This document shows, one piece after another, positions 11,203 to 57,112 of a DNA stretch of 64,000 nucleotides. A model generated the notes under the pieces. The model saw only the letters and a list, made by a program, of their open reading frames with translations. It had not been told where the DNA came from and made no database searches. Every line of letters begins with the position of its first letter. Positions within the stretch are counted from its first letter, which is position 1. Where the stretch lies: contig CAZOYW010000007.1 of NCBI GenBank assembly GCA_964584165.1, positions 32,886 through 96,885 on the forward strand. Reading direction: 5' to 3'. The DNA is from an uncultured bacterium (GTDB lineage Bacteria > Auribacterota > Erginobacteria > Erginobacterales > CAZKCI01). The translations under genes were made by a program, and so were the position numbers.

Positions 11203-11289
11203 GCCGGGAAACCGCCAATGGGCGCGGGGCGGCCAGCCGTCCGATTCGTCGGATCCGACCGATCCGTCCGATCGGAGCGCGCGGCCGGA

Positions 11290-37060: not shown

Positions 37061-39037
37061 CTAGAGTTTCCAGACCAGGAGGCCCACCAGCGCCAGGACG
37101 ATCCCCAGTATATAAAGGTTCAAACGCCCGTGCTGAAGGAGACGGAGCCGGGCCAGGAGCCCCCCCATGATCGAAAAAATCGGACGGTAGACGCCCTCCT
37201 GGTAGAGATCGGGCGTTTCGCTGGAGAAGGAGGATGACGCGGGGAAGAAACCCATGGGCGGAACGAAACGGCGGCGGGTGCGCAGGAAAACGCGGAACAT
37301 CCGCATCAGGGGATCGGCGAAGGAGGAGGCGGTGTATTGCATCCGGGGCGACGGCGCGATGTAGCCGCAGTCCCAGGTGACGGAGGCGCTCACCTCCCGG
37401 CCGCGGAGAAGGCGGTCTCGCGCCCAGTAGAGAAGGAGGGCAAGGCCGATCCCTCCCGTCGCCACCGCCGCGATCATGGTCAAGGCGTCGCCCACGCCCG
37501 CCGGGGCCGAAGACAAGCCGGCCACCACGCCGACCGCCGGCTGGAGGAATGGGATGATGAACGACCCGCCGAGGCCGATGGCGGCGCAGGTGGTCGCCAG
37601 AATCGCCATCGGCATCTTCATCGCCCCTCCCGATTCATGGGCCGCGGCGGACGCGGAGGAGCGCGGCTCGCCGAGGAAGATCACGCCGAAGGCCTTGACG
37701 AAGCAGGCCACCGCCAGTCCCCCGATCAGTGCCAGCGCGGCGAGGCCGATCATCCCGGCGAAAACCGTCCCGACGGGTTGGCGGCTGGGCTCGGCCACGG
37801 CGCGCAGGGAGGACAGGTAGATCAGGAACTCGCTCACGAAACCGTTGAGCGGCGGCAGTCCGCAGATGGCGGCCGAGCCGACGAGAAAGGCGAGTCCCGT
37901 AGCCGGCAACCGCTTGAGGAGTCCGCCGAGATGCTCGATATCGCCCGTCCCGGCGGCGTGGATGACCGACCCGGCGGAGAGGAAGAGGAGGCTCTTGAAG
38001 ACGGCGTGGTTGATCACGTGGAGGAGCGCGCCGGCCAGGCCCAGAAAGGCCATGGCCGGAGAGCCGTAGGAAATCCCCAAGAGGCCGATGCCGATACCGA
38101 GCGCGATGATCCCGATATTTTCGACGCTGTGGTAGGCGAGGAGGCGCTTGAGGTCGTGCTGGGCGAGCGCGAAGAGGACGCCCAGGACGCCGGAGACGAC
38201 GCCGATGGCGACGAGCGACCAGCCCCACCAGGGAGGCGGCGTCCCGAGAAAGGTGAGAACGCGCAGCAGGCCGTAGATCCCGGTCTTGATCATGACGCCG
38301 CTCATCACGGCGGAGACATGGGAGGGGGCGGCGGGGTGGGCCTCGGGGAGCCAGACGTGGAGGGGAATGAAACCGGCCTTGGCGCCGAAGCCGACGAGGG
38401 CGAGGAGGAAGGCCGCTCCGGCGAAGCCGGGGAGGGCGGCGGCGCGGGCGAACCCGCTGAACTCCAGGCCCTCCGCTCCCCGCCCGAGCAGCGCGAAGAG
38501 GGCGAGCAGGAACGCCGCCCCGATGTGGGCGGCGATCAGGTAGATCCAGCCGGCCCGGCGAACGCCGGCCTTCTCGCTGTCGAACATGACCAGGAAGAAG
38601 GAGGCGATCGACATCGCCTCCCAGGCGAGGAGGAAGAGGAGTCCGTCGCGCGCGAGCACCACCAGGAGCATGCTGGCGGTCAAGAGGTGGAAGAAAAACC
38701 AGGAGGCGGCGATGTCCCTCTTCCCCTCCCGGTCCCTGAGGTAGGCCGACCCGTATATCGCCGAGAGAGCTGTTATGGCGAGTATCGGGAGCGCGAAGAC
38801 GGCGGAGAGGGCGTCCAGGGCCAGGAGGATCGATCCGAATGGCATCGACCAGCCGAGGCGAAGGACGCCCAGAGAGTGTCCGCTCAACGCCATGAGGACC
38901 GGAGGGAGGCCGAGGAGAGCGGCGGCGACGGCGACCGCCGGCCCGACGACCCGCGTCCATGACGGACGGCCGATCGTGGCCAGGCAGAGGAACGCCCCCC
39001 CGAAGAGGACACTAAGAGCCGCGACGATCCAGATCAC
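37061..39037 (-). CDS. NuoL/MrpA/HyfB-like antiporter-type membrane subunit
   Basis: 658 aa. KAGFIPLHVWLPEAHPAAPSHVSA motif. GTG start overlapping the upstream stop. Confidence 0.8.
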   Translation of the reverse strand: MIWIVAALSVLFGGAFLCLATIGRPSWTRVVGPAVAVAAALLGLPPVLMALSGHSLGVLRLGWSMPFGSILLALDALSAVFALPILAITALSAIYGSAYLRDREGKRDIAASWFFFHLLTASMLLVVLARDGLLFLLAWEAMSIASFFLVMFDSEKAGVRRAGWIYLIAAHIGAAFLLALFALLGRGAEGLEFSGFARAAALPGFAGAAFLLALVGFGAKAGFIPLHVWLPEAHPAAPSHVSAVMSGVMIKTGIYGLLRVLTFLGTPPPWWGWSLVAIGVVSGVLGVLFALAQHDLKRLLAYHSVENIGIIALGIGIGLLGISYGSPAMAFLGLAGALLHVINHAVFKSLLFLSAGSVIHAAGTGDIEHLGGLLKRLPATGLAFLVGSAAICGLPPLNGFVSEFLIYLSSLRAVAEPSRQPVGTVFAGMIGLAALALIGGLAVACFVKAFGVIFLGEPRSSASAAAHESGGAMKMPMAILATTCAAIGLGGSFIIPFLQPAVGVVAGLSSAPAGVGDALTMIAAVATGGIGLALLLYWARDRLLRGREVSASVTWDCGYIAPSPRMQYTASSFADPLMRMFRVFLRTRRRFVPPMGFFPASSSFSSETPDLYQEGVYRPIFSIMGGLLARLRLLQHGRLNLYILGIVLALVGLLVWKL

Positions 39038-39750
39038 TCCTGGACGGCTCCTTCCTCCCTGTTCCCGGATGGGCGATGCGGGATGCTGCCGTCGACCAGA
39101 GCCGCGGCGGCGGCGATCTCGGCCCGGCTTCCGCGGCGGGAGATCGCATCGGAGAAAGCGGGATGGCGCAGCGCGAATGACAGCCGGGAGAGAAGATTCA
39201 GATGGGCCGAGATGGTGGGAGAGACGATCATGAAGATCGTGTGGACCGGTTTGCCGTCCAGAGAGCCGAAATCGATCGCTTTCTCCAGGAAACAGAGCGT
39301 CACCATCGGCTGGGGGATGAACATGACGATGGGGTTGCGGACATGGGGGATGGCGATCCCTTCGCCGATCCCCGTGGATCCCAGCGACTCCCGGGCCAGG
39401 AGCACGCGCAACAGGAACATCCGGTCGACTTCCTTCGGGAGCGCCATCATCTCGATGGCGGTTTTCAGGACCGAATCTTTGTCATCACCCTCCACCCGGT
39501 AGTGAATCCCCCCTGCCTGGAGGGCTTCCGCCAAGGAAGGGAACGGCACCTTGTCGCGGTCGGGGTCGGAGAAGATCTCGGTCGAGACGTTGACGCGGTG
39601 GGCCGTCGCCCATTCCAGGAGCTCGGCCCGGTTGATCCGGTATTGCTCGTTGATCTTGAAAACCGGGAGATTGTTCCCCTTGATCCACCGATAAACGGTC
39701 TTCTCCGACACGTTCATCAGCTCGGCTGCTTCTCTGACCCCTATCTGCAT
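39034..39750 (-). CDS. HTH (MerR/excisionase-type) DNA-binding domain fused to PTS EIIA(Fru/Ntr)-type domain; first gene of the Ehr-like operon
   Basis: N-terminal MNVSEKTVYRWIKGNNLP HTH. C-terminal EIIA-2-like domain with GIAIPH active-site His motif. Confidence 0.6.
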   Translation of the reverse strand: MQIGVREAAELMNVSEKTVYRWIKGNNLPVFKINEQYRINRAELLEWATAHRVNVSTEIFSDPDRDKVPFPSLAEALQAGGIHYRVEGDDKDSVLKTAIEMMALPKEVDRMFLLRVLLARESLGSTGIGEGIAIPHVRNPIVMFIPQPMVTLCFLEKAIDFGSLDGKPVHTIFMIVSPTISAHLNLLSRLSFALRHPAFSDAISRRGSRAEIAAAAALVDGSIPHRPSGNREEGAVQE

Positions 39751-40125: not shown

Positions 40126-40488
40126 CTAGTCGCTCTTGTTTTCCTCATCGCTTTCGCGATTATGCGAATCTCCATCTATCCCCGCCCTTTTCAATAGATT
40201 GAATACTAACTTGCCCCTAAACAGCATATACCACGCCAACACAACATATAGCATTATGTGAATAACATTATTTGCGAATGCCGATATATCGATATTTTGC
40301 GCCGTCTTGGCAATATATGTCGCCATATCTTGCCCGGATTCGTCGATATGAATCCTGGGCATGGCGATATACTTGTACATGGATATCATAAGGGATGGCA
40401 GTATCATGACGGCCTTAATGCCGCAATATACGCCGAATGCCCTTACGATCACCCAGGCTGTTTCAGCCCCGTTCATATTCATCTTCAC
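40126..40488 (-). CDS. small membrane protein (2 TM), AT-rich, island-borne
   Basis: 120 aa. GC content far below the genome background. Confidence 0.4.
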   Translation of the reverse strand: MKMNMNGAETAWVIVRAFGVYCGIKAVMILPSLMISMYKYIAMPRIHIDESGQDMATYIAKTAQNIDISAFANNVIHIMLYVVLAWYMLFRGKLVFNLLKRAGIDGDSHNRESDEENKSD

Positions 40489-41360
40489 GTTATTTTCCTT
40501 TTTGGGTATTCAGACCCGAAGCCTCATCCCCACATTTCACTCAACATCCTCGCCCGTTTCAACTTATTCATGAGCACCAAGCGGGGTGCCAATAACCCTT
40601 GGTGAAAGTTGACCGGGCCGATCCTCTTGGCAGGTCTATGAGCAAGACACTACATTTAAGACTTCAAGATCTCAGATTGAGATCTTAAACGCTGCCCGTC
40701 GTTCCGCACACCATGCACTGCGGTTCCCGCCCATCCCTATCTCGCGGGCCTGTTCCCCGGCATTAGCCGTATCTCACGAGGTGATGGCTTGCCTGTATTT
40801 CAACGATCACTTCCTGATATATCGCGATGTTCATCGGGAACTGTTCGCAAATTGCGCTGAATTAGGTGAACCCGCCAACTCGGCCGCACGTCTCGATCAG
40901 GCCGAATGAGAATGTTGACTGATTGATACGTCCTCTGTCTTCATCTTTTTTGCTCGCTTATAAAGCCCCGAAACCCCGGAGGGGTGATCGACAATAGCCA
41001 AGGGGTTTACCCCCTGCTCTGAAGGCAAAATCAGCATGGAGCCCCGGAAGGGCGACGGAATCCCGCCGCCGAAGCTAGCCTCGCGAAATCGCCTGCGCTC
41101 CATCCCCTGCCTTCCTGTCCCGTGCCAATCCAAGGAAGGCTCTCATTTACAACTGTCCAGTTTTTGGGGGGCAGGTCATCCCGAGCATAGGAAAAATAAA
41201 TGATGGTGCACTTTTCAACATAATTTCTCTCCCTAATGGTTAAGGGATTTACTCTAACGGCTCCCGCTCAAGCCGCCCCCCTTTTCCCAGCACTCATTGA
41301 TCGGCGGCTTACAGCCGATTTTTAACCCTAATTTCGGCTTTAAGCCGTTATAAACCCCCA

Positions 41361-41396
41361 TTTATGCGTATCCCTTTGCTAATCAACCAGATTCCG
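41361..41396. repeat. 36-bp direct repeat R1 (tttatgcgtatcc...caaccagat.ccg), 3' of the RSD gene
   Basis: 30/36 identical to R2 at 42818-42853. Confidence 0.6.
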
Positions 41397-41435
41397 TGGT
41401 CCGACTACATGTTCGATATCTCTAGATATTACTCC

Positions 41436-42482
41436 TCACGCCTTGTCATTATCCTTTTTATTGTCTTCATTTTTAGTTGTTAGTGGAAAACCCAATAAGC
41501 CCGGAAATGTCCCCAATCCATACTTTGATATGTCAATCCTGAATTCGTTAGGATTTGGTATACCAGCTATATTTGGACTATCTAAAATGTACATATTCGG
41601 ATCAAATATATTGATCTTTTCTATCTGAAACGCATTCAACTTATTTATCAGTTCCTCCTTTTCCTTTTTTTCAATTTCTAGCTTGTCGATTTTCACTTTA
41701 AGATCTTCAATTATGCAAGACAATTTATTTACCTCCATCTTATGAACTTCAGCAGTTTCGTCAATCTTCCCCTTTAAATACTGTATATATGAGCCCATCC
41801 CATCCGCGCTTCCAGCGAGGCCATTAAATATTTTCAGGTACGGCATTAGTATTGGATTATCTTTGTCGTATGGATATCGCATTTTATGATCGATTTCGCT
41901 CCACGCCTCTTCAAATATAGTTCGTACTTGAATTTCAACAATAACAGGTTCCTTTGTCGGTTGGGTTTTAATTATGTAATGTACAGATCTATATCCATAC
42001 GGGTGGTTTTCCACCACACATCCCTTGTCTGTATACCTATTTTTTTCGTCGCCTTCACGAATATATGCCTTCGGCTTTTCGATGGTCTCCCATTCATTAA
42101 TAATATATTCATGAATATCATCCCAATCATTTTTAAATAAATGCATTACCCTTACCCCAGCTAAATCAATTACAATGTTCCGATAATTATCTATAGCAAT
42201 TCTAACCTCGGAGTTTTCAAGAGATTTTCGAATAATTTTCTCAATTAAATGATCCGATTCTTTAATGCGTGTTTTTACTGAATGAGCTTTAGGTATATTT
42301 CTTAGCCTTTCGGCAATAGAATTCGCTGCTTGAAATAGATTCATAAATGTTTTATCATAATCTTCGACTATCGCCATCAAATTGGCCCACTTTAATCCTG
42401 ATTTAATATAGTTATCATCGGGTATTCTATACTTCTTGATAAAATCCTTATAATTCATAGCACGACTCCATTGTTTATGCAT
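41436..42482 (-). CDS. RelA/SpoT-domain (RSD) protein, toxSAS/CapRel-like single-chain architecture
   Basis: HSVKTRIKESDHLIEKIIRK, YRSVHYIIKT, VEIQVRTIFEEAWSEIDHKMRYPY (synthetase-fold motifs). C-terminal ~140 aa with coiled coil. Low GC. Confidence 0.7.
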   Translation of the reverse strand: MHKQWSRAMNYKDFIKKYRIPDDNYIKSGLKWANLMAIVEDYDKTFMNLFQAANSIAERLRNIPKAHSVKTRIKESDHLIEKIIRKSLENSEVRIAIDNYRNIVIDLAGVRVMHLFKNDWDDIHEYIINEWETIEKPKAYIREGDEKNRYTDKGCVVENHPYGYRSVHYIIKTQPTKEPVIVEIQVRTIFEEAWSEIDHKMRYPYDKDNPILMPYLKIFNGLAGSADGMGSYIQYLKGKIDETAEVHKMEVNKLSCIIEDLKVKIDKLEIEKKEKEELINKLNAFQIEKINIFDPNMYILDSPNIAGIPNPNEFRIDISKYGLGTFPGLLGFPLTTKNEDNKKDNDKA

Positions 42483-42599
42483 TATTCAATTCCACCTTGG
42501 ATCCCTGGATTCGATAGCTTATTCCTTACTGGTGAAGATAGCTTTGAGAACAAAACAGCTACAACATCACCTCCAATGCATTCTCTTGCTTCAACCTGT

Positions 42600-42790
42600 C
42601 AATGAGCTCTAGGCGGGGGGCCTGGATATTCCCCTTCGGCGGGAAGTGGAGCCCCGCACCATTTTTACGCCTCAATGCGAAACTCTAAGCGAAGTGCCCT
42701 TGGCCAATCTATCGCCGCAGAAGACCGGGGCACAAGCCGAAGGGTCGACCGAGCGGATCCGCTTAGGCCGGCCTTTGAGCAAGACGCTGC
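42600..42790 (-). pseudogene. degraded 3' fragment of a GIY-YIG-family paralog (related to the C-terminus of the 47014-47817 gene)
   Basis: The minus strand translates to VLLKGRPKRIRSVDPS... and ...NIQAPRLELIDR. Compare KYIVLLKGRPKRVGPVDSSPKVNIQAPRLALLDRLI in the intact gene. Frameshifts and a stop are present. Confidence 0.5.
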
Positions 42791-42817
42791 TGTTGTTTTG
42801 ACTCCTTTTTATGCGTA

Positions 42818-42853
42818 TCCGCCTGTCAAGCAACCAGATGCCGAAGCCTAACC
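42818..42853. repeat. 36-bp direct repeat R2, immediately 3' of the PHP-SMC ATPase gene
   Basis: See R1. Confidence 0.6.
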
Positions 42854-42863
42854 GCGCATTTAT

Positions 42864-45845
42864 CTATCCAGCCTCGCCTAAAATATGTTTCCACTGTAAT
42901 CGGTAACGCCGCTCACGTTCTAAAAATGCACGTTCCCCTCCCTCTAGAATCCCGCACACCGTCGTCCGGATATTCGGGTTTTCAAGCGACCCGCTCTGAT
43001 ATTTAATGTGTGGAAGAGTGCCGTCTATACTCGGAGTGGCAGTTGCAATAATCACCTGATCCGCATCCGTATTAACGACCAAGTTGGCATTGTGAGTTAC
43101 GATAATTACCTGTCGGCGCTTACGTACTTGACGAAAGTGCGGTACCAAATCATCGAAAACTGATTTGGGATCAAGATTCTCCTCCGGTTGATCTATTAGA
43201 AGGGGGCGCCGGTCGTTGCGATCAATTGCGAGGTATAGCAAAAGAAGCACTATTCCACGCGTACCGGGAGATACCTGTTCAACAACAACCCCATCATACT
43301 CAATCCCATAACGAATTTCGATGTGCTCAGTGCTGTAAAGCCACGCTCCGATCTGGCGAAACCACTCTACCTTTTTCCCGGGTTCGATCGATGAAGGCAT
43401 TGCAGCCTGAATATCATCCGAATGTTTCGCCACGAAATCATGCATAGCCGTCGCCACTTCATCGGGGTTTCCGACGCGCCACGGCGATAAAAGAGCATCC
43501 TTTGTAATGCTGGCCAGTGTGCCGTGCCCTCGAAATGGTGTGTTCTTCCGCAGATCGAGCAATTCTTCCCCAGCCTTAACCCAATCATTGAAACTAACAT
43601 GTCGCCTGACAACAAAACGCATTTTGGCGAGCGCCCCTTGCTCTCCTTCGAGCTCTTTGTGCAACGGCGTATAAAGACGTGCTAGAGCCCGCTCTTCTTC
43701 TGCAAATGTATTGAAAATCGAGCGGTAGGCTTGTCTGCGCGTGGCTCGTAGAGCGCGTAGTCGTTCGTCCGCCCCTTCCCCATTGTCGATCGCGAGGTCT
43801 AGCTTTTTTAGGCTAGTCTCATTCGCTGCAATCGCTCTATTGAGGATGTCATATTTCCTTTGCTTAATCTCGTCACCCCCAACCTGCTTTTTCGCGGCGG
43901 CACGCGCAGATTTCAGCGCGTCGAGCGGCCAAACGTTCAACGGCACTTTCGTAAGATCTAACGGATTAGTAGGGTCGACGCATTGAAGCTTAGTAATCTC
44001 ATTCGCGACTTTGCTTTTAGCTTGGGTGATGATCGTCTCCACATCGCCGGAATATTTTAGCCGGAAATTCCCCCACTCGATTTCAGTAAGACCTGACTCA
44101 GCGAACCTCTCGCGCATTTCAGCCAAACGTTGCGCGGCATCTTGATCGCGAATGAATATCACCTCGGCGAGCAAGTCATCCAAAGCTTTTTGCCTCCGCC
44201 TCAAGCTTTCAACGCGGTTTTCTGCGTCCGTACATGCCAGATCAAGTTCGAGCAACCGCTGGGCTCGTTTTCCAGCATCCTTCGGCAGCAGGTTCTCAAG
44301 ATCTTTGCGAGATTTCTTGAGTTGCACGCCCAAACTATTGCGATCAATTCGGAGCTTGGGCAATTGATCCTGCAACCGCATCTCCATGGCAATTTTCGCA
44401 GAAGCTGTCGCCACACTTTCGATTTGCTGCTGGCGGCGGCGTCTGATCGGTTTCAGCAACAGATCTGCAAGCGCCTCGAAAGATTCGGTTTGCATACGGT
44501 CTACTGGTTCGGTTTGGTCGAAAATCACCCTCTCAATCTCTTGTCGTAGTTCGACGGCAAGCCCTGCAGATGAGCAAAGTTGTTCCACGAACTGCTGTGA
44601 GAGATAGCGCACCTGCGGCATTTCCTCCGTCCATTCGTCGGGTGAACGGAAGGGAGCCAACTTCCTCTCACCATCGGCCCAGACCTCTTCAACTTGAGCG
44701 TCGCCGATGAGATCGTCAGGTGAGGTGGCTCGCCGCAAAAATGAGGATTCACCCAAGTTGTTGCCGATTGCCTGAGCACCGGCGGCAATCATGTCAAGCA
44801 GCGCGGTCTTGCCAGAACCCCGCTCGCCAATGATGCTGATAAGTCCATGGTTCAATTCGATTTCTTTATTGAGGACCCAAGACATGCCGATGGGCTTTAT
44901 GCTCTCGAGGGTAACCGAATCGGGGATTTCAGTCGGAGATCGTTCGCTGATCGAGACTCGTTCTTCCGGCTCAATGACGGCCTGGCGGAGACTCTCAAAT
45001 GCGAGATCGCCCTTGATCCAGCAATAGCGCGCCAAGTCTGGAGCAGCGACACGGTCCAATTGGTGAGCGTCACATCCATGGAGGCAAGGCTTGATTGCAC
45101 CATATCTGCGTTCAATCGCCTTGCGATCCATCCCGGCCTTGAACCCTAGCCAAAAATCATGGTCGGCTTTGTTGCCTGAGAAGATTATATGCGAGAAACC
45201 CTCGATTTCTTGCCGGATAGCGGAGAAGGCATCATCCTCTTGGAGGCCAGAAGTCCCATCACATTTCGAACTTGCGACTGCCACGAGGCAGTTGTGTCGA
45301 ACCCAGGAATCTTCACGAAAAAGACCTCGCAGCTGGTCAAGGGTTACTTTGAACTGACCAACACCTTCTCGGAATGCACCTTCATCATCCGTTTGCTTTG
45401 GATTATACTTGCGGCCCAATGCGATGAGTTCCGAGCGCGCGCATGAATATTTTCGCTCCTTATACTCGAACGTGAGCTTTCCGAGAATTCGTTCAATCTG
45501 CTGCTCGTGATCCAGATCATCAGGAGAAAACAAGAGATGAATATTGATGCCTTTACTTTGCGCGGTCTTGAGCTCAAGCCTCATTTCAATATTTGGGAAA
45601 ATAAGGTCCACTTGAGGCAGCCGGCCCTCAGCTTTATGCGCACAGATTTGCTTATAACTCTGGATGCACAAATAATCCGTGATGCCTATGGCTCGGATGG
45701 TAGGGGATGCATTTTCGATCTTTTCCAGATAACCCTGCCAGGCACCAGCGAACTGATCACCCAGCACGGTTCCCGGTGCATGAATATGGGGGTCCCAGCG
45801 GTGCCATTCTGAACCGCGCAGGCTCCATTTTGGTGTTGCTTTCAT
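42864..45845 (-). CDS. PHP (polymerase/histidinol-phosphatase) domain fused to SMC/RecF/ABC-type coiled-coil ATPase (993 aa)
   Basis: N-terminal WDPHIHAPGT...AIGITDY (PHP motifs). Walker A IIGERGSGKTALL. Roughly 450 aa of coiled coil. C-terminal LLIDQPEENLD (Walker B / D-loop) and VTHNANL (H-loop). GGAGGA RBS; AT-rich upstream region. Confidence 0.8.
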   Translation of the reverse strand: MKATPKWSLRGSEWHRWDPHIHAPGTVLGDQFAGAWQGYLEKIENASPTIRAIGITDYLCIQSYKQICAHKAEGRLPQVDLIFPNIEMRLELKTAQSKGINIHLLFSPDDLDHEQQIERILGKLTFEYKERKYSCARSELIALGRKYNPKQTDDEGAFREGVGQFKVTLDQLRGLFREDSWVRHNCLVAVASSKCDGTSGLQEDDAFSAIRQEIEGFSHIIFSGNKADHDFWLGFKAGMDRKAIERRYGAIKPCLHGCDAHQLDRVAAPDLARYCWIKGDLAFESLRQAVIEPEERVSISERSPTEIPDSVTLESIKPIGMSWVLNKEIELNHGLISIIGERGSGKTALLDMIAAGAQAIGNNLGESSFLRRATSPDDLIGDAQVEEVWADGERKLAPFRSPDEWTEEMPQVRYLSQQFVEQLCSSAGLAVELRQEIERVIFDQTEPVDRMQTESFEALADLLLKPIRRRRQQQIESVATASAKIAMEMRLQDQLPKLRIDRNSLGVQLKKSRKDLENLLPKDAGKRAQRLLELDLACTDAENRVESLRRRQKALDDLLAEVIFIRDQDAAQRLAEMRERFAESGLTEIEWGNFRLKYSGDVETIITQAKSKVANEITKLQCVDPTNPLDLTKVPLNVWPLDALKSARAAAKKQVGGDEIKQRKYDILNRAIAANETSLKKLDLAIDNGEGADERLRALRATRRQAYRSIFNTFAEEERALARLYTPLHKELEGEQGALAKMRFVVRRHVSFNDWVKAGEELLDLRKNTPFRGHGTLASITKDALLSPWRVGNPDEVATAMHDFVAKHSDDIQAAMPSSIEPGKKVEWFRQIGAWLYSTEHIEIRYGIEYDGVVVEQVSPGTRGIVLLLLYLAIDRNDRRPLLIDQPEENLDPKSVFDDLVPHFRQVRKRRQVIIVTHNANLVVNTDADQVIIATATPSIDGTLPHIKYQSGSLENPNIRTTVCGILEGGERAFLERERRYRLQWKHILGEAG

Positions 45846-45970
45846 CTGATAACTATAGTCCTCCAGTTGCTTGTTCGCGATATATTCAGATCCCGAATAT
45901 TGCCCATTGCCATATAATTTCCCCGATATTTACGCTAGGTATAGCTATAATTTGAGGTTATCATCCAATA

Positions 45971-46417
45971 TTACAATTTCTGAATCCATTTCGCGAAATC
46001 GGATTGTGTCTTCTTCCCTACTGCAACGGATCCCCCGCGGGTAAAATGTTTGCTTCCCGCTATCCAAATGTATCCGCCAAAATCAGATGGAAGAAATAAA
46101 TCCCCATATTGAATCATGGCTACCTTTTCTTTCCCGAAATGGCCGAAGAAATAGCCAAACTCAAACATAACATTCAGATTTGGGATGTTCTTTTTCTGTT
46201 TCTTGATTATCGTTCGGGATTCCGGAGAGAAAACAAGCAAGGCTCCTTGCACTTTCGCGCGGATAGAGTCTAGTTCTTCCAGTAAGTTTCTCCCGGGAGT
46301 AAACGCATCCCACCACGGTAAGAAGGAGACAACATTTGAGGTTAAAGCTTTGACAATCGCTTTGGCTTGGGACCTGGCTGCCGACGACGAACCGATGAAT
46401 AGCTTTATTTCTGGCAT
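45971..46417 (-). CDS. TIR-like domain protein (COG4271/PF10137-type predicted nucleotide-binding TIR-like)
   Basis: 148 aa KLFIGSSS...PWWD.F..G...L..L......GALLVFSPE...NVMFEFGYFFGHFGKEKV...LPSD.GG pattern. Confidence 0.55.
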   Translation of the reverse strand: MPEIKLFIGSSSAARSQAKAIVKALTSNVVSFLPWWDAFTPGRNLLEELDSIRAKVQGALLVFSPESRTIIKKQKKNIPNLNVMFEFGYFFGHFGKEKVAMIQYGDLFLPSDFGGYIWIAGSKHFTRGGSVAVGKKTQSDFAKWIQKL

Positions 46418-46530
46418 ATTTGTTCCTCCCTTCCATTGTTTAATTTCAGATATTATTTGAATACGTAGGCCAACGTCCTAACCTACTTTAACCTATCCAT
46501 AAGCGCCGAACGAATGGTATGAATATTCAT

Positions 46531-46896
46531 CTATTTCAGAACAATGGATAGAATACCCACAAGTAGCCCTATAATGCTTGCAATCGCTCCCCAAGTTTGT
46601 AGATTTACATCAATCTCGGGATATTTATCTCTAATATATTTCGCCAATATAATACCTCCAACGCAGGAACCCCCTACAAGAACAAGCAGGAATGCTGTCT
46701 TGATCAATATTGGGCCTATATTATAGCTTGGCAAAGGTGTTCCTAGCGAAGATTCCCAAATGTAGACTATTGGCCGAACAAGTGCTCCATGCCGCGTTGC
46801 AGGGAAAAACACTGCTAATATTAGCAATAATAGCAATACTGCAATTGTGCACAAACATCCAAACTGATCTGTTTTATTAAAATTGCTTCTAAACAT
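46531..46896 (-). CDS. small membrane protein (3-4 TM)
   Basis: 121 aa. Hydrophobic segments CLCTIAVLLLLLILAVFF, AFLLVLVGGSCVGGIIL, AIASIIGLLVGILSIVL. Confidence 0.45.
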   Translation of the reverse strand: MFRSNFNKTDQFGCLCTIAVLLLLLILAVFFPATRHGALVRPIVYIWESSLGTPLPSYNIGPILIKTAFLLVLVGGSCVGGIILAKYIRDKYPEIDVNLQTWGAIASIIGLLVGILSIVLK

Positions 46897-47013
46897 AAAT
46901 ATGCCCTTTTAGTTTCAGCGAGATATGCTCGCTAATATCGACACCGCCTCTGCCAACGTCCTCGACCGCTTCAACCTGTTCATAAGCGTCAGGCAGGGGA
47001 CCTGACTACCTGA

Positions 47014-47817
47014 CTACAGTGCATTTGCCAATGTCTTCGCCCGGATCAGCCGATCCAGCAAAGCCAGGCGCGGGGCCTGGATATTGACCTTCGGCGAGGA
47101 ATCTACCGGACCAACCCTCTTGGGGCGGCCTTTGAGCAACACGATATATTTCCCTGACTTGCGCCAGGGCTTGATCTTCCGGATGCGGCCATAATGGGTC
47201 ACTTGCTTGATGGGCGAGGTAAGGTAAATCGCAAGGTATTTCAGCCTCGGGATGACCCGCTTGGAAAGGCGGATGGCATACCAACGGTTTTTGCCCAGGA
47301 ACTCCTTCTCGAACCCATCCTTGTGAGCCGGGCAGACAAGCGTGTCATACTCCCCTCTTCGCCGGCGGACATCACAGCTTGAAGATACCTTCTTCGGAAC
47401 GCCTCCGGTGATATCAGCCAACTCGCGCCGCTGGGACTGAACGATCCGGCTCTTGAACACCCGGTAAAGATCGCGCGAGGCGGTGATTTTCCCTGAAACC
47501 CGATTCCCTTTGGGCGAGGCTATCCTCAGAACCAGCGACTCAAGCTCCCGCAAATGCTCGTCGCCCTGAGTCAGATAGATGCTGAACCGGTCCCATTCCT
47601 CGGCATGGCGATCCTTGAGGTGGCCATGCAGCCTTGATCGAAGGTTCCGGGCCAGGCCGACGTAGTAGAGGCTATCCCCGGCATAAAGAGCATATACCCC
47701 GCTCTTCCCCCGGGCGAATTCGGTAATGATATCCGGATATCTTTTTATCGCCGTCCGGGCGATGTTCTCCAAATGCTCGACGACGAGCGGGGCTTTCCCA
47801 ATCCGTTTTCTTCTCAC
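47014..47817 (-). CDS. GIY-YIG nuclease-domain protein with ~170-aa C-terminal domain
   Basis: GVYALYAGDSLYYVGLARNLRSRLHGH (GIY-YIG). Cys/His pair CDVRRRRGEYDTLVCPAH. Degraded copies of its 3' end elsewhere in the island. Confidence 0.6.
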   Translation of the reverse strand: MRRKRIGKAPLVVEHLENIARTAIKRYPDIITEFARGKSGVYALYAGDSLYYVGLARNLRSRLHGHLKDRHAEEWDRFSIYLTQGDEHLRELESLVLRIASPKGNRVSGKITASRDLYRVFKSRIVQSQRRELADITGGVPKKVSSSCDVRRRRGEYDTLVCPAHKDGFEKEFLGKNRWYAIRLSKRVIPRLKYLAIYLTSPIKQVTHYGRIRKIKPWRKSGKYIVLLKGRPKRVGPVDSSPKVNIQAPRLALLDRLIRAKTLANAL

Positions 47818-48078
47818 TTGGCATCTCCTTTCACAATCCCAATCGCTTCCTCCGTCAGTTCAAATAGCTCATAATGACCGAACTTGTACAGGCGGGAAGG
47901 TTGCGCTCGAAGACTTCGACCAGGCGTTGGATCTTGTCCGAGGCGGGCATGGTCTATACCGGAGGGTTGTTTATAATCATACAAATCCCCGTTTTCCAAT
48001 TCCATAAGATATTCCATTACATAATATATTCCAGTTCCCCCCTCCCTCCTATTCATAGCCCCCCCCGCCTGCTCCCCC

Positions 48079-48463
48079 TGGGACACTTCCTGTCCGATCG
48101 GACAAGGTTTGTCCACTTTTGATCGGGAATGGAGGATTTCCGGCCCCCCCAACCCAGCATTGATCTGGGACAACTCGTGTCCGATCGGACAGGGTTTGTC
48201 CACTTTTGAGCAGGAATGGAGGGTTTCTGGCCCCCCCAACCCAGCATTGATCTGGGACAACTCGTGTCCGATCGGACAGGGTTTGTCCACTTTTGAGCAG
48301 GAATGGAGGGTTTCTGGCCCCCCCAACCCAGTATCGAGCTGGGACAACTCGTGTCCGATCGGACAAGGTTTGTCCGTTTTTGATCGGGGAACGAGGGCTT
48401 TTCCTGCTCCAAACCCACCCATTGAGTTGGGACAACCCATGTCCGATCGGACATGGGTTGTCC
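48079..48463. repeat. array of five ~87-bp tandem repeats, each containing the perfect palindrome TGTCCGATCGGACA (last unit a perfect 36-bp palindrome)
   Basis: gggacaactcgtgtccgatcggacagggtttgtcca...cccccccaacccagcattgatct repeated. Lies in the divergent region between the GIY-YIG and PaaX-like genes. Confidence 0.85.
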
Positions 48464-48567
48464 CAATGTCGTCTCCTGATGAGTTCATTGCCCTTGAAAT
48501 CTCTGCAAGAAATATCCGTTCAAAAGAGTCCTTATAGTAGGGCGGGCAATGTCCGCATGAGCGCCGA

Positions 48568-49356
48568 TTGCCCCTCCATCGCGGAGACGCGCGGATGCCA
48601 ACCGTTGCCGAAGATATCCTGATGCTCCTCGCCGAGGGAGCGTTCCGGCTCCTGACTTTCCGCTCCCTGTTCACGCTCGACTGGGGGTTCAGCTCTCCGG
48701 CTTATCGCAAAACGATCACCCGGCTCGAAAAAGACGGCGCGGTCCGGCGGGTGCAACATAGACGCGACGTGTATCTTCATCTCACCGATCGAGGCAGAAA
48801 AATTCTGGAACAACGCCGTCCTCCCCCGAGAAAATCCCCGCCGACCTGGGATCGTCTCTGGCGGCTGGTGATCTTCGATATCCCGGAGAAAAGAAACGAG
48901 GACCGCCTTCTGCTCCGTCGGTATTTGACGGCATCGGGGTTCGCAAAAGTGCAAAAGAGCGTTTGGATCGCTCCCTATGACCGCGAAGAACAAGTGCAGG
49001 AGTTCACCCGAAAAATCGATATCCAACGCTATGTATTGCAGCTGACGTTTAAAAAATTCCGCAACCTCGAGGAGCGGGATTTAGCCGCGTCGTTCTGGGA
49101 TATCCAAGGTCTGCAAGTTCGCTACCAGGAACTGATCCAACGCTACGCGAAAAGAATGGCCGTGCTCCCGGCAGGGACAAGGGGGGCGGCGATTGGGCGC
49201 AGACAGTTCTTGAACGATCTGCTCTGGGATTACCAAACTATCCTGGCCTTAGACCCTCAACTGCCGACCGAGCTGCTTCCGGCGAACTGGAGCGGCGCGG
49301 CCGCGAAGCAGTTCGTGAATCGCTGCCGCACCCTTTTCTCCAGCGGCCCTGTGTAG
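48568..49356 (+). CDS. PaaX-family winged-helix transcriptional regulator
   Basis: WDRLWRLVIFDIPEKRNEDRLLLRRYLTASGFAKVQKSVWIAP matches the PaaX C-domain consensus. N-terminal wHTH. The start may be ATG 48595. Confidence 0.6.
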   Translation: MPLHRGDARMPTVAEDILMLLAEGAFRLLTFRSLFTLDWGFSSPAYRKTITRLEKDGAVRRVQHRRDVYLHLTDRGRKILEQRRPPPRKSPPTWDRLWRLVIFDIPEKRNEDRLLLRRYLTASGFAKVQKSVWIAPYDREEQVQEFTRKIDIQRYVLQLTFKKFRNLEERDLAASFWDIQGLQVRYQELIQRYAKRMAVLPAGTRGAAIGRRQFLNDLLWDYQTILALDPQLPTELLPANWSGAAAKQFVNRCRTLFSSGPV

Positions 49357-49385
49357 CGCAATCCGGATATGCGTTGTTGCACGCT

Positions 49386-49507
49386 CGGACAACTTCTGTC
49401 CGATCGGACAGGAGTTGTCCCGATGAAACCAGGTTTTCGGGAGGCAGTTTCCCCCTCTTTCATGCTTGGATTTGGGACAAATCCATCCGATCGGACAGGT
49501 TTGTCCC
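49386..49507. repeat. two further 34-36-bp palindromes of the TGTCCGATCGGACA family, 3' of the PaaX-like gene
   Basis: cggacaacttctgtccgatcggacaggagttgtccc and gggacaaatccatccgatcggacaggtttgtccc. Confidence 0.8.
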
Positions 49508-49532
49508 AAGCCCGAAGCAGGCGGAAAGGGGG

Positions 49533-49780
49533 GATGAGGGATGAGAGATGAGGCATAAGAGATGAGGCATGAGGGATGAGGCATGAGGAACAAGGAGGGG
49601 CGACTGCCGATGCTGGACCGTCCCGGCGCAGGCGGTTTCCCGATTTGGCCCGTGCCGCGACATTCCAGATGGGCGACCGCCGATGCTGGACCGACCCGGC
49701 GCGGGCGGTTTCCCGATCTGGCCCTTGCCGCGACATTCCAGAGGGGCGACTGGCGATGCTGATCCGTGCCGGCGCGGCCT
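49533..49780. repeat. GATGAGG(C/G)AT heptamer run, then 2.5 tandem ~75-bp repeats, upstream of hypE
   Basis: gatgagggatgagagatgaggcataagagatgaggcatgagggatgaggcatgagg; then ggggcgac.gccgatgctggaccg.cccggcgc.ggcggtttcccgat.tggccc.tgccgcgacattccaga.g two times plus a partial copy. Confidence 0.75.
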
Positions 49781-49807
49781 TCCTCGGGGGTGATATACTG
49801 TTGCCCG

Positions 49808-50821
49808 ATGAGCAAGCAGCGGACCATCACTATGGACGACGGGAGCGGGTCGCTCTCCTCCCGGGAGCTCCTCCGGGAGAGCGTCCTCCCCTATCTCCGG
49901 AACCCCGTCCTCAACCGGCTGGAGGACGCGGCCCGCTTCCCGGCGGGGGGCGGGGAGTTCGCCTTCACCACCGACGCCTTCGTGGTCTCGCCAATCGTCT
50001 TCCCGGGCGGGGACATCGGGAAGCTCGCGGTCTGCGGGACGGTCAACGACCTCGCCGTGATGGGCGCCCGCCCCCTCGCCCTCGCCTCCGCCCTCATCCT
50101 CGAGGAGGGCTTCCCACGGGCGCTTCTGGAAAGGATCGTCCGCTCGATGGGAATCTGGGCGAAGCGGGCCGGCGTCCGGATCGTCGCGGGCGACACCAAG
50201 GTGGTGGGAAAGGGGAACGCCGACGGAATCTACATCTCCACCTCCGGCGTCGGCCGGGTGATCATGAAAACGCCCCCGGCGGCGGAGCGGATCCGCCCGG
50301 GCGACCGGGTGATCTCAAGCGGGACGGCCGGCGACCACGGCCTGGCGATCCTGGCCGCCCGGGAGAGGCTCGACATCAGCCCCCAGCTCAAAAGCGACTG
50401 CGCTCCCGTGAACGGACTGATGGAGCGGATGGTCAAATCCGGGGCGGAGATCAAGTTCATGCGCGACCCCACGCGGGGAGGGCTGGCCGCGGTACTCAAC
50501 GAGATCGCCGAGGGGCGGGACTGGGGGATCGGGATCGAGGAACGCTCCGTCCCGGTCCATCCCCGGGTTCGGGCGGCGGCCGAGATACTCGGCCTCGACC
50601 CGCTGGTCCTCGCCGGCGAGGGGAGGATCGTGGCCGTCGCCGCCGATCGGGACGCCCGGAGGCTCGTCGCGGCGATGCGGTCGCATCCCCTGGGGAAACA
50701 GGCGGCCGTCATCGGCGGGATCGTCCGCGGGCATCCCGGCCTGGTCTCCCTGAGGACCCGGGCGGGGGGAGAGCGGGTCATGGACTGGCCCCGGGGCGGC
50801 GACCTGCCGCGGATCTGCTGA
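49808..50821 (+). CDS. hypE: [NiFe]-hydrogenase maturation factor HypE
   Basis: AVCGTVNDLAVMGARP, AGDTKVV, C-terminal ...PRIC. Confidence 0.85.
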   Translation: MSKQRTITMDDGSGSLSSRELLRESVLPYLRNPVLNRLEDAARFPAGGGEFAFTTDAFVVSPIVFPGGDIGKLAVCGTVNDLAVMGARPLALASALILEEGFPRALLERIVRSMGIWAKRAGVRIVAGDTKVVGKGNADGIYISTSGVGRVIMKTPPAAERIRPGDRVISSGTAGDHGLAILAARERLDISPQLKSDCAPVNGLMERMVKSGAEIKFMRDPTRGGLAAVLNEIAEGRDWGIGIEERSVPVHPRVRAAAEILGLDPLVLAGEGRIVAVAADRDARRLVAAMRSHPLGKQAAVIGGIVRGHPGLVSLRTRAGGERVMDWPRGGDLPRIC

Positions 50822-54538: not shown

Positions 54539-57112
54539 ATGCAAAAATGTCGTTGCTTTACCGGTCTGATCGCGCTCGCCGCCCTTGTCCTCGCCGGAAA
54601 GGCGGAAGCGACCGCCTGGCAGACCCAGAACCCCATCCCCACCGCCAACAACTTCAACGACGTTTACTGCCTCCCGGGCGCCCACGTCGTCGCGGTGGGG
54701 AACGCCGGGGCAATCTTCCTCTACGAGCCGGGGGAGGCCGCCTGGCACTATCTGACCTGCCCGCCGGAGGCGAACTACAACGGCGTCTGGGGCGACACTC
54801 CGAATAACATCTACGCGGCCGGGCGCGGCCAGGGCGAATACAGCGACGGGGCGATCTACCACTACGACGGCTCCTCCTGGTCCCAGGTCCATTTCGTCCA
54901 ATACAACCAGATCTACGACATCTGGGGCGCCGACGGCGCCTCGGTCTACGCCGTGGGCGACGGGGGGACCGTCCTCCGCTACAACGGGTCGTCCTGGTCG
55001 GCCATGGACATCGGCACCGCCCAGACCATGCGCGGGGTCTGGGGGCTGGCCGCGAACGACGTCTACGTCGCCGGGAGCGCCAAGGTCCTCCACTACAACG
55101 GATCGAGCTGGTCCGAGATGACCAGCGACTCCTCCGGCGGCTTCCAAGACATCTGGTGCGACGCCGCAAACAACATCTACGCGGTCAAGGACACCGGGAA
55201 GATCTTCCACTACAACGGTTCCACCTGGTCGGTGGCGACCGCGGTCACCAGCGGAGGGTCGAGCGTCTCCCTCTCCGCCGTCTGGGGCGCGGGCGGAGAG
55301 GTCTACGCGACCGGGAGCGGCAATCCGGTGGTAGTCTTCCGCTATGCCTCCGGCTCCTGGGAAGCGATGGAGAGCGGTACCGCCAAGCCCCTCAACGGGG
55401 TGCACGGACTGAACACGGGCGACGTCTACGCCGTCGGAGAAGACGGCAGCGTCGTCCACTACGCCGGCTCCTCCTGGTCCTCCCTCCCGAGATGGAACGA
55501 CAGCAATTTCTACGGCGTCTGGGGCTCCTCGCCCACCGACGTCTTCGCCGTGGGCTGGCGGGCGAGCGGGGCGGGCGGCGTCGTCCTCCACTATGACGGA
55601 ACCGACTGGTCGGAGATGACCATCCCACCCTACGGGACCTTCAACCAGCTCGAAGGGGTCTGGGGATCATCCTCCTCCCAGGTCTTCGCTCTCGGCAACA
55701 AGATCTACCTCTACAACGGCTCCGGCTGGACCGAGCAGACCGAGATCACGCCCGCCCAGGTCTACGCGGCCTGGGGGTCTTCCCCCACCAACGTCTTCGC
55801 GGTCGGCTACGTCGCGTCCTACGAGGGGGGAGTCTTCCGCTACGACGGAGCGAACTGGACCGTCTCGACCGTCATCCCCTACACCCTGCGCGACGTCTGG
55901 GGATCTTCGGGCACCGACGTCTACGCCTGCGGAGACCATAACCAGATCATCCGCTTCGACGGGAACCAGTGGACGGTGCTCACCGACGGCGACGCCGCGA
56001 CCGGCTGGTCCGGGATCTGGTCGGGAGGGAGCGGTTCCTTCTACGCGGTCGGCTCCAACCTGAACAACGACGACCTCCTCCTCCACTACGACGGGGGGGT
56101 CTGGACGCTGAAAAGCGACTTCCACTTCGCCAACTTCAGCCGGATCTGGGGCTCCTCGGACTCCGACCTCTTCGCCGTCTCCACACCGATCGGGACGAGC
56201 GACAAGGTCTGGGGGCGGATCCACCACTACGACGGCCGTTCCTGGGCCGAGTCGCCGACCTACTGGGAGAACGGCTTCAACAGCGTCTGGGGATCGTCCG
56301 GGACCGACGTCTTCGTCGTCGGCGACGGGGGGTCCATCCTCCACTACGGGGGCGGCCGGCTCGTCGCCGAGAAGCCGAATTGGATCTACGACTACGACGG
56401 CGACGGCACCTCGGACATCGCCATCTTCCGGGGGACGAACGGGATGTGGTCGATCCGGAACCTCACCCGGGTCTACCTGGGGAACTCGACCGACGAACTC
56501 GTCCCCGCCGATTACGACGGCGACGGGACGACCGACCCCGCGATCTTCCGGGAATCCGCCGGCCTCTGGTCGGTCCGCTCCCTCTCCCGCTTCTACCTGG
56601 GGGCCACCGACGACCGCCCCGTCCCCGGCGACTACGACGGCGACGGGACAGCGGAGGCGGGGATCTTCCGCCCCACGGCGTCGCTCTGGTCGATCCGGAA
56701 CGTCACCCGGGTCTATCTCGGCGGATCGGACGACGTCCCCGTCCCCGGCTGGTACGACGAGGACGGCGCCAAGGACATCGCCGTCTTCCGGGGAGAGAAC
56801 GGTATGTGGTCGGTGCGAAACCTGACCCGGTTCTACTTCGGGAACTCGACCGACGATCTCGTCCCTGGCGACTACAACGGCGCCGGTTTCTGGGAGGCGG
56901 GGATCTTCCGCCCCTCCTCGTCGATGTGGTCGATCCGGAATGTCACCCGGGTCTATCTCGGGGGCGCGGGCGACTGGGCCCTGCCCGCCGACTACGACGG
57001 CGACGGCGCCGACGACGCCGGGATCTTCCGCGATTCCTCGGGCCTCTGGTCCGTCCGCGACGTTACGCGGGTCTTCTTCGGCTCCAGCGCCGACCTGCCG
57101 GCGACGAGGTAG
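54539..57112 (+). CDS. secreted beta-propeller protein with C-terminal FG-GAP-like DYDGDG repeat domain (paralog 3)
   Basis: Signal peptide. About 14 WG..xxDVYAVGxxGxILHYDGSSWS blades. Seven C-terminal DYDGDGTxDxAIFR...GLWSVRxLTRFYLG modules. Confidence 0.7.
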   Translation: MQKCRCFTGLIALAALVLAGKAEATAWQTQNPIPTANNFNDVYCLPGAHVVAVGNAGAIFLYEPGEAAWHYLTCPPEANYNGVWGDTPNNIYAAGRGQGEYSDGAIYHYDGSSWSQVHFVQYNQIYDIWGADGASVYAVGDGGTVLRYNGSSWSAMDIGTAQTMRGVWGLAANDVYVAGSAKVLHYNGSSWSEMTSDSSGGFQDIWCDAANNIYAVKDTGKIFHYNGSTWSVATAVTSGGSSVSLSAVWGAGGEVYATGSGNPVVVFRYASGSWEAMESGTAKPLNGVHGLNTGDVYAVGEDGSVVHYAGSSWSSLPRWNDSNFYGVWGSSPTDVFAVGWRASGAGGVVLHYDGTDWSEMTIPPYGTFNQLEGVWGSSSSQVFALGNKIYLYNGSGWTEQTEITPAQVYAAWGSSPTNVFAVGYVASYEGGVFRYDGANWTVSTVIPYTLRDVWGSSGTDVYACGDHNQIIRFDGNQWTVLTDGDAATGWSGIWSGGSGSFYAVGSNLNNDDLLLHYDGGVWTLKSDFHFANFSRIWGSSDSDLFAVSTPIGTSDKVWGRIHHYDGRSWAESPTYWENGFNSVWGSSGTDVFVVGDGGSILHYGGGRLVAEKPNWIYDYDGDGTSDIAIFRGTNGMWSIRNLTRVYLGNSTDELVPADYDGDGTTDPAIFRESAGLWSVRSLSRFYLGATDDRPVPGDYDGDGTAEAGIFRPTASLWSIRNVTRVYLGGSDDVPVPGWYDEDGAKDIAVFRGENGMWSVRNLTRFYFGNSTDDLVPGDYNGAGFWEAGIFRPSSSMWSIRNVTRVYLGGAGDWALPADYDGDGADDAGIFRDSSGLWSVRDVTRVFFGSSADLPATR

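Follow-up and report, generated by a model that had tools for sequence, protein, structure and literature searches.

Why does a single small gene lie between two sets of copies of one long palindrome? The question is raised by a locus in a 64,000-nucleotide (64-kb) stretch of DNA from an uncultured bacterium of the Auribacterota (contig CAZOYW010000007.1), called the window below. The gene encodes a protein with the fold of the repressor PaaX, and palindromic sites stand both upstream and downstream of it. The evidence is comparative, and it makes the palindrome very likely the cognate site of the adjacent winged helix-turn-helix (wHTH) protein. Positions below are those of the window unless another locus is named, and loci used for comparison carry L numbers. 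The parts of the module are:

48078..48463, no strand: tandem array of 4.4 copies of an 87-bp unit, made up of a 36-bp site and a 51-bp spacer.
48079..48114, no strand: unit 1, a composite palindrome with 13 of 17 arm pairs complementary.
48166..48201, no strand: unit 2, an 87-bp tandem copy of unit 1.
48253..48288, no strand: unit 3, another 87-bp tandem copy.
48340..48375, no strand: unit 4; units 1 to 4 jointly correspond to the single distal unit in L001 and L009.
48427..48466, no strand: unit 5, promoter-proximal, a perfect 40-bp palindrome whose core lies 153-154 bp 5' of the ATG.
48504..48542, + strand: conserved promoter-like block TGCAAGAAA-N20-TCCTTATAGTAGGG, common to relatives at 50-94% protein identity.
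48595..49356, + strand: gene of the 253-aa PaaX-fold protein, with a wHTH domain (residues 1-74), a Cas2-like ferredoxin-fold domain (89-152) and a helical PaaX_C domain (160-249).
49386..49421, no strand: site 6, a downstream composite palindrome 30 bp past the stop codon, with 16 of 17 arm pairs complementary.
49472..49509, no strand: site 7, a downstream composite palindrome with outer arms TTGGGACAAA/TTTGTCCCAA and an exact core TCCGATCGGA.

The 14-mer TGTCCGATCGGACA starts at 48091, 48178, 48265, 48352 and 48440 on the 5' side of the gene and at 49397 on the 3' side. A further 3' copy, at 49484, reads CATCCGATCGGACA and has two mismatches. These seven matches compare with 0.51 expected, and none of 100 shuffled sequences reached that number. 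The upstream spacings are 87, 87, 87 and 88 bp, and sites 6 and 7 are likewise 87 bp apart. Tandem Repeats Finder reports the array at 48078-48463 with a period of 87, 4.4 copies and 87% matches. A sequence-only reading of this DNA had described five upstream copies at an exact 87-bp period, the last of them a perfect 36-bp palindrome, and two more copies beyond the gene. The recurrence stands and the exact period does not, the last spacing being 88 bp. The last unit is perfect over 40 bp (48427-48466) and not 36, and only one of the two downstream copies is exact. The same reading held that the array is not one of clustered regularly interspaced short palindromic repeats (CRISPR), and here it was right. 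The spacers of units 1-3 are 95-100% identical (166-nt stretches; the stretch with the fourth spacer is 73% identical), and homologous spacers occur at other loci, so a CRISPR array is rejected.

The recognition unit is longer than the 14-mer. It has the form GGACA-N5-TGTCC-GATC-GGACA-N5-TGTCC and covers 34-40 bp, that is, two GGACA-N5-TGTCC units that meet at GATC. It is usually extended to (T)GGGACAA...TTGTCCC(A), and the outer arms here are GGACAA-N22-TTGTCC. The 64-kb window holds 12 exact copies of GGACA-N5-TGTCC, every one within 48081-49420; with up to one mismatch allowed, 13 are observed against 1.7 expected. Composite sites in the window are the bracketing copies only, and the 10-bp core TCCGATCGGA has one exact copy outside the module, at 11267. 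Unit 5, taken as single-stranded DNA, folds into a hairpin of -21.8 kcal/mol (z = -7.5). Four head-to-tail 15-bp units of the type GGACAC-TGGAT-GTCC, spaced 19, 22 and 21 bp, were seen in L118 (3642-3720 of that locus). They suggest that the composite site is built from the 15-bp inverted repeat GGACA-N5-TGTCC as its basic element.

Evidence that the sites belong to the gene is provided by its relatives. In the nine close lineages, whose proteins are 41-94% identical, the site is found on both flanks in every case (window, L001, L005, L008, L009, L011, L013, L015 and L017). The copies differ in detail. L005 and L008 have TTCCGATCGGAA with ACAAC/GTTGT arms, L011 has GGACAACTCATGTTCGATCGAACA... 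at 87-bp spacing, L015 has a perfect 40-bp palindrome, and L017 has CTGACAT...CCGATCG...ATGTCAG at spacings of 83 and 82 bp. In L005, L008 and L011 the genes on either side of the downstream copy converge on it; it is therefore part of the module and no operator of the next gene.

A wider sample was taken from GTDB genomes, in which 522 stretches encode relatives; the best 80 were taken, and 74 were testable. Matching upstream and downstream palindromes flank the gene in 27 of the 74, against none of 78 shifted pseudo-genes. In these GTDB relatives, palindromes stand at a density of 1.00 per kb close to the gene and of 0.21 per kb at greater distance. Among the 27 are the Ca. (Candidatus) Auribacterota, Verrucomicrobia, Kiritimatiellae, Berkelbacteria, Parcubacteria, Saccharibacteria and Gribaldobacteria, and a weaker matching pair flanks the gene in L033, a metagenome-assembled genome (MAG) of the Gammaproteobacteria. 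Down to about 40% identity the association holds in all homologues examined, and down to about 30% in many. Judged by these comparisons, the bracket layout is family-wide in this PaaX-fold clade.

Gene copies of one genome can also be compared. The MAG CAKZYZ01 has seven paralogues (L020, L023, L025, L027-L030) and the MAG CAWGIE01 has four (L019, L022, L024, L026). Each is bracketed by its own variant of the 36-bp palindrome, and the two copies around one gene match each other. The outer arms are, for instance, GGCCA, ATACA, AAACA or AGACA; the centre is mostly CGATCG, and TTGATCAA, CGTACG and GCGGCCGC also occur. Within 3 kb on either side of 13 paralogue loci, the bracketing copies are the only ones. 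Because the palindrome changes together with the paralogue, the protein very probably recognises it; this is the strongest evidence at hand. The earlier proposal of an operator-type site for a dimeric wHTH protein is supported by this co-variation. No description of the layout was found in open-access papers and bioRxiv, where absence is no proof of novelty, and a bracket with its own palindrome for each gene copy, spread across many phyla, appears to be undescribed.

What kind of protein is encoded between the sites? The gene starts at the ATG at 48595 (MPT..., common to all homologues) and not at the TTG at 48568. Its product matches the Pfam families PaaX_M, the 'central Cas2-like domain' (2.7e-21; 75.9 bits, cut-off 24), and PaaX_C (9.3e-11; 42.4 bits, cut-off 22); the N-terminal PaaX wHTH (PF07848) scores 18.3 bits, under its cut-off of 24.8. 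A phmmer search of the PDB finds E. coli PaaX (8a39, 4.5e-11) and Rv0674 (3kfw, 4e-7). The same two structures are the top Foldseek matches (4.3e-8 and 1.2e-6), at a template-modelling score (TM-score) of about 0.35 for a model of moderate quality. That AlphaFold2 model consists of a winged helix (1-74), a beta-alpha-beta-beta-alpha-beta domain and then a helical domain. Its mean predicted local distance difference test score (pLDDT) is 68.7 and its predicted TM-score (pTM) 0.34, and it was used for domain order alone. The label 'PaaX-like' that the gene had been given is right at the level of the fold.

The middle domain is matched by Cas2 chains in Foldseek, weakly by the Pfam family CRISPR_Cas2 (8.9e-4), and by PADLOC Cas2 profiles (2.9e-6). 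It carries an F-D-I-P-E motif. The aspartate of this motif stands at what we take to be the catalytic position of Cas2 (Y-D-I motif, end of beta-1). It is kept, as F-D-I/V-P-E, in 126 of 149 clade relatives and is missing from the three canonical PaaX-family proteins inspected. No cas families were found among the six flanking genes scanned at 41.4-50.8 kb (five genes of a neighbouring island and an AIRS/HypE-like gene), and the Cas2-like domain of the PaaX-fold protein is the sole Cas2-related feature in the genes scanned there.

The fold does not make the protein a phenylacetate regulator. No paa genes lie near the gene, whose neighbours are a helix-turn-helix/phosphotransferase-system EIIA (HTH/PTS-EIIA) gene, a defence island and the AIRS/HypE-like gene; in relatives, CN_hydrolase, Peptidase_C1 or TonB receptor genes are found beside it. 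The operator of E. coli PaaX is the wide inverted repeat TGATTC-N27-GAATCA (PMC9493321), and it has no match in the window at up to two mismatches. The canonical PaaX-family genes L133, L134 and L135 have no bracketing palindromes. Without paa genes or a PaaX operator, and at a locus unlike the canonical ones, the protein is therefore not a phenylacetate regulator, and genes of this clade should not be labelled as such in annotation.

The position of the sites relative to the promoter differs between lineages. We infer from sequence a promoter role for the conserved block at 48504-48542, with TATAGT at 48533-48538 as the putative -10 element; a sigma-70 scan of 47800-49850 gave no canonical match for the block and nothing above shuffled sequence. 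The window, L001 and L009 have the same block, and their nearest intact site ends 67 bp 5' of TATAGT. All five intact upstream sites of the window lineage lie 5' of the putative -10 element, and the proximal core is at -153/-154 in four lineages (window, L001, L009 and L005). Sites on the predicted promoter can be found in other relatives. In L020, L021, L022, L024, L025, L027 and L030, by inspection for the consensus, TTGACA-N17-TAnnnT abuts or overlaps the upstream palindrome, and in the AT-richer paralogues it ends at or within the left arm. In L013 and L008 the palindrome stands immediately 3' of the conserved TATAGT. With the site on the predicted promoter, these relatives have the classical geometry of autorepression. 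The window has a stretch with a faint palindrome likeness, GGGCGGGCAATGTCCGCATGAGCGCCGATTGCCCC, just after TATAGT (48550-48590); it may be a decayed operator at the transcription start, where L013 and L008 have an intact site.

Sites also occur away from the gene. Metagenome contigs were scanned for GACA-N5-TGTCCGATCGGACA-N5-TGTC, and the presence of a PaaX-like protein on them was judged by hidden Markov model (HMM), even at E <= 1. The strict site is on 35 contigs. Only 3 of these encode a PaaX-like protein, and in each of the three the gene is bracketed. The other 32 have the site and no such gene. About 20 of the 32 come from one metagenome, and some are 10-15 kb long with the site in mid-contig. 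No hidden PaaX-like pseudogenes were found near the dispersed sites by HMM search of six-frame translations. The dispersed sites are mostly intergenic, in divergent, tandem and convergent contexts, and their neighbours share no functional theme (among them are Metallophos, UPF0102, PfkB, MORN and Ig-like proteins). Arrays of 86-88 bp with spacers homologous to those of the window are found in L102, L108, L125 and L131, with no such gene there; the L102 array lies beside four tRNA genes. In L111 and L129 the site is in a convergent intergenic region, far from any such gene. Probably the protein acts at many places in some genomes; alternatively, the palindrome spreads in the manner of repetitive extragenic palindromic (REP) sequences.

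Three metagenome loci without a PaaX-like gene, L102 (2280-3122 and 3597-3928 of that locus), L126 (6417-6487) and L119 (5175-5245), have the palindrome 300-600 bp from tRNA genes.

The two arms of a site tend to vary together. The sequence between the conserved boxes changes from one copy to the next, yet complementarity across the arms tends to be preserved. Among 40 dispersed sites there are 33 distinct N5 sequences, and in 11 sites the N5 is perfectly complementary; 109 N5 pairs are complementary, where shuffles give 70.9 +/- 6.5. Of the gene-flanking sites, 25 of 98 are perfect 34-bp palindromes. L022, L025, L028, L062 and L066 have different spacers in their upstream and downstream copies, and each copy by itself is a perfect or near-perfect palindrome. 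Mismatches on the sense strand show no bias to G:U, with 36 against 47 of the A:C type over all sites and 10 against 10 in the near-perfect ones. This argues against an RNA hairpin, and a cause at the level of DNA is left: either a cruciform or hairpin that has a function, or hairpin-templated repair that makes the arms alike.

The five-unit array and its upstream neighbour have a history of their own. The sequence-only reading had placed the array in a divergent region shared with a GIY-YIG gene; that gene belongs to an island that the closest relatives lack, and there the HTH/PTS-EIIA gene adjoins the module. The features of the island are:

40128..48053, - strand: low-GC defence island of 7.9 kb, inserted, outside the module and absent from the closest relatives.
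41436-42482, - strand: RelA/SpoT-like gene (PADLOC PDC-S33).
42864-45845, - strand: gene of a Ppl-like ATPase of 993 aa (Ppl 3e-27).
45971-46417, - strand: CAP12/Pycsar-type TIR gene.
47014-47817, - strand: GIY-YIG-like gene, at the end of the island nearest the array.

The island also has two small membrane open reading frames (ORFs), and all its genes are on the - strand. Its right end is about 25 bp from unit 1. The GC content is about 70% in the host, 42-55% at 40-48 kb and 56-60% in the module. The contigs of L001-L004, which encode a 94%-identical protein, align to the window up to 40127 and then again from 48054; the segment 40128-48053 is therefore an insertion that is absent there. 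The PaaX-like gene of these four loci lies about 920 bp from the HTH/PTS-EIIA gene (39034-39750 in the window). L009, with a protein about 78% identical, has no island genes between its HTH/PTS-EIIA and PaaX-like neighbours, and in L001 and L009 synteny is kept, the module standing with the HTH/EIIA gene on one side and the AIRS gene on the other. No integrase was seen in the island, and no target-site duplications or inverted repeats were seen at its ends or just outside the bracketing palindromes.

Where the window has five upstream sites, L001 and L009 have two, 88 bp apart, together with the same two downstream sites. As reconstructed from these loci, the module ancestrally had a pair of sites on each side of the gene, the two members of a pair standing about 87 bp apart. 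Since the closest relatives lack the island, the GIY-YIG gene is taken to be a recent neighbour. Since they have two upstream units, the five units are read as a recent local tandem amplification from two to five, in which the distal site was copied along with its 51-bp spacer, and not as a designed array.

Other repeats were noticed around the module. A segment of 70-220 bp, the 3' end of the GIY-YIG-like ORF, recurs between the island cassettes in three to four degenerate copies, 62-78% identical (40540-40651, 42572-42843, 46469-46505 and 46952-47145). The copies may be what is left of repeated GIY-YIG-associated insertions, or else a repeat that marks cassette boundaries. On the other side of the module, eight copies of the heptamer GGGATGA (49531-49588; the run is also in L001) are followed by 2.5 copies of a 73-bp tandem repeat (49595-49777). 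Both repeats lie directly 5' of the AIRS/HypE-like gene or overlap its start. Farther on, 56393-57082 holds nested tandem repeats of 120, 240 and 360 bp with 65-74% matches, which probably encode the repeats of a large protein, secreted or FG-GAP-like; DNA that resembles them is found in L005 beside a Peptidase_S8 gene.

How might the protein and its sites work together? The explanation we favour, with somewhat more confidence than doubt, is a self-contained autoregulated module that is bracketed by its own operators and has further targets in the genome. The Cas2-like domain would serve for dimerisation, next to the wHTH and the helical C-terminal domain, and the cognate site would be the 34-40-bp palindrome. 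Dimers, or dimers of dimers, would occupy both flanks and repress transcription of their own gene. The flank clusters are about 0.95-1.3 kb apart, which makes cooperative contacts or a DNA loop between them probable, on the model of lambda CI joining OL and OR around cI. The downstream sites may serve as another operator cluster, as a roadblock or as a terminator, and the protein probably also acts at the other genomic copies of the site. From the layout as a whole we infer binding, repression and looping.

Several observations weigh against this explanation. At 87 bp, the spacing does not amount to whole helical turns. For the window lineage, a simple occlusion of RNA polymerase is hard to see; given the 67-bp gap between site and TATAGT, repression there would need cooperative or looped complexes. 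The downstream sites of the window are 260-380 bp 5' of the AIRS/HypE-like gene (49766-50821) and their target could be that gene instead. Spacers that vary and yet stay self-complementary are not expected from a plain dimer-operator model, and neither is the convergent placement in L111 and L129.

An alternative is that the palindromes are REP-like repeats which can amplify in tandem and disperse, and that the wHTH-Cas2-like protein binds or processes their hairpin or cruciform DNA. We regard this as unlikely. The scarcity of the gene on site-bearing contigs, the intergenic sites in every gene orientation beside neighbours without a common theme, and the arrays at loci without the gene are all in its favour, as are the covariation of the arms despite differing spacers and the aspartate kept in the clade and not in the canonical proteins. 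It would also account for the bracketing by paralogue-specific palindromes, which is seen in REPtrons too: there, the gene of a REP-associated tyrosine transposase (RAYT, or TnpA-REP) is flanked by the class of REP sequences or bacterial interspersed mosaic elements (BIMEs) on which the RAYT acts. The protein here, however, has no histidine-hydrophobic-histidine (HUH), transposase or recombinase domain by Pfam, phmmer or Foldseek, PaaX-family proteins of known function are repressors, and the upstream palindromes lie exactly on promoters in many relatives. The dispersed copies are too diverse to look like a recent burst of a mobile element, and no polymorphism between empty and filled sites was observed. 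Around the gene, in the 64-kb window and at the 13 paralogue loci, the bracketing copies stand alone, and neither GTAG nor CGTC, the usual tag of REPs, is found on the palindromes. A bolder form of this idea, to be held only as a rather unlikely proposal, is a widespread and undescribed class of self-contained module in the Planctomycetes-Verrucomicrobia-Chlamydiae (PVC) group, the Patescibacteria (Candidate Phyla Radiation, CPR) and a Gammaproteobacteria genome. A wHTH-Cas2-like protein that has kept the aspartate at the Cas2 position would there recognise paralogue-specific perfect palindromes as a hairpin or cruciform, and the palindromes would amplify and disperse. If true, the module would be a non-HUH counterpart of the REP/RAYT pair, and possibly a living Cas2-family protein tied to palindromic repeats outside CRISPR.

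An action on RNA is improbable. The palindromes would be transcript hairpins, a 5' stabiliser and a 3' terminator, bound by the ferredoxin-fold domain. Such a role would fit the upstream palindrome that starts at about +1 of the predicted promoter in several relatives, the T-run after the downstream palindrome in L020, L086 and L090, and the hairpin with T-run that a terminator scan picks inside units 1 and 4. It does not fit the absence of a G:U bias, or the window lineage, whose five intact upstream sites are all 5' of the putative -10 element. No Rfam family is matched at gathering score, where sub-threshold matches are to microRNA-type hairpins only, and terminator-like elements at 47800-49850 number 3 against 2.5 in shuffled sequence. 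Very improbable, and already largely refuted, is a reading as an iteron, a centromere or a recombination site that belongs to a plasmid, a phage or an integrative element, or as the homing target of the GIY-YIG-like protein. The sequence-only reading had offered an iteron, partition or recombination site of a mobile element beside the operator, and the tandem, regularly spaced repeats, the low-GC island that ends in a GIY-YIG-like gene close to unit 1, and a module GC below that of the host all point that way. The same sites, however, are present in relatives without the island, and the chromosomal neighbours are kept. There are no replication, partition, recombinase or integrase genes and no target-site duplication, and the palindromes are 87 bp apart and not direct iterons of 17-22 bp. 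No relative was found in 2.9 million viral contigs, and a phage origin is rejected. Plasmid matches are to canonical PaaX genes only, at 25-31% identity, and the three inspected have no palindromes; a plasmid origin is rejected as well.

The bracket layout is of use beyond this locus. Dozens of paralogue/site pairs amount to a protein-DNA specificity code that can be read from sequence, in a family without a known DNA-complex structure; those of the two MAGs with several paralogues are a natural set in which to decode it. In Patescibacteria (CPR) and in genomes of the PVC group, where few regulators are understood, the pairs also offer a first way into regulation. The covariation of the arms, the dispersal of the sites and the kept Cas2-type aspartate together raise a possible action on extruded DNA hairpins, which, if true, would link Cas2-like domains to palindromic repeats outside CRISPR.

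Parts of this arrangement can be found in known systems. PaaX (PDB 8a39), which in E. coli and Pseudomonas is a repressor that responds to phenylacetyl-CoA, has the same wHTH, Cas2-like dimerisation domain and helical C-domain. It autoregulates, and its operator is of a width comparable to the 34-40-bp palindrome. The identity is only about 21-25%, however, and the window has neither paa genes near the module nor a PaaX operator; canonical PaaX-family genes (L133, L134, L135) also differ in the missing brackets and the missing aspartate. CRISPR systems share a domain that matches Cas2 profiles and keeps the Y/F-D-I motif, and palindromic repeats of about 36 bp with spacers of about 51 bp. Here, unlike there, the spacers are near-identical or conserved between loci, neither cas1 nor any other cas gene is among the neighbouring genes examined, and the repeats flank the gene instead of forming one array beside it.

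In REPtrons, as here, a single gene is bracketed by its class of palindrome, one class for each paralogue, and further copies are scattered between genes or grouped in clusters at regular spacing. Papers on REPtrons include PMC3333891, PMC2817692 and PMC3337134. The present protein is no HUH Y1 transposase, its palindromes are without the GTAG/CGTC tag, many of the upstream copies overlap promoters, and the sites without a gene amount to 32 contigs. Lambda offers the comparison for the favoured reading. Its cI gene is flanked by the OL and OR clusters of CI's own pseudo-palindromic operators, looping by CI leads to autoregulation, and specificity co-varies between heteroimmune relatives. The fold is unrelated, the context here is not that of a phage, and the sites are 34-40 bp long where those of lambda are 17 bp. 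On the favoured reading, the present module likewise has a repressor gene bracketed by its own operator clusters, with a probable loop between them.

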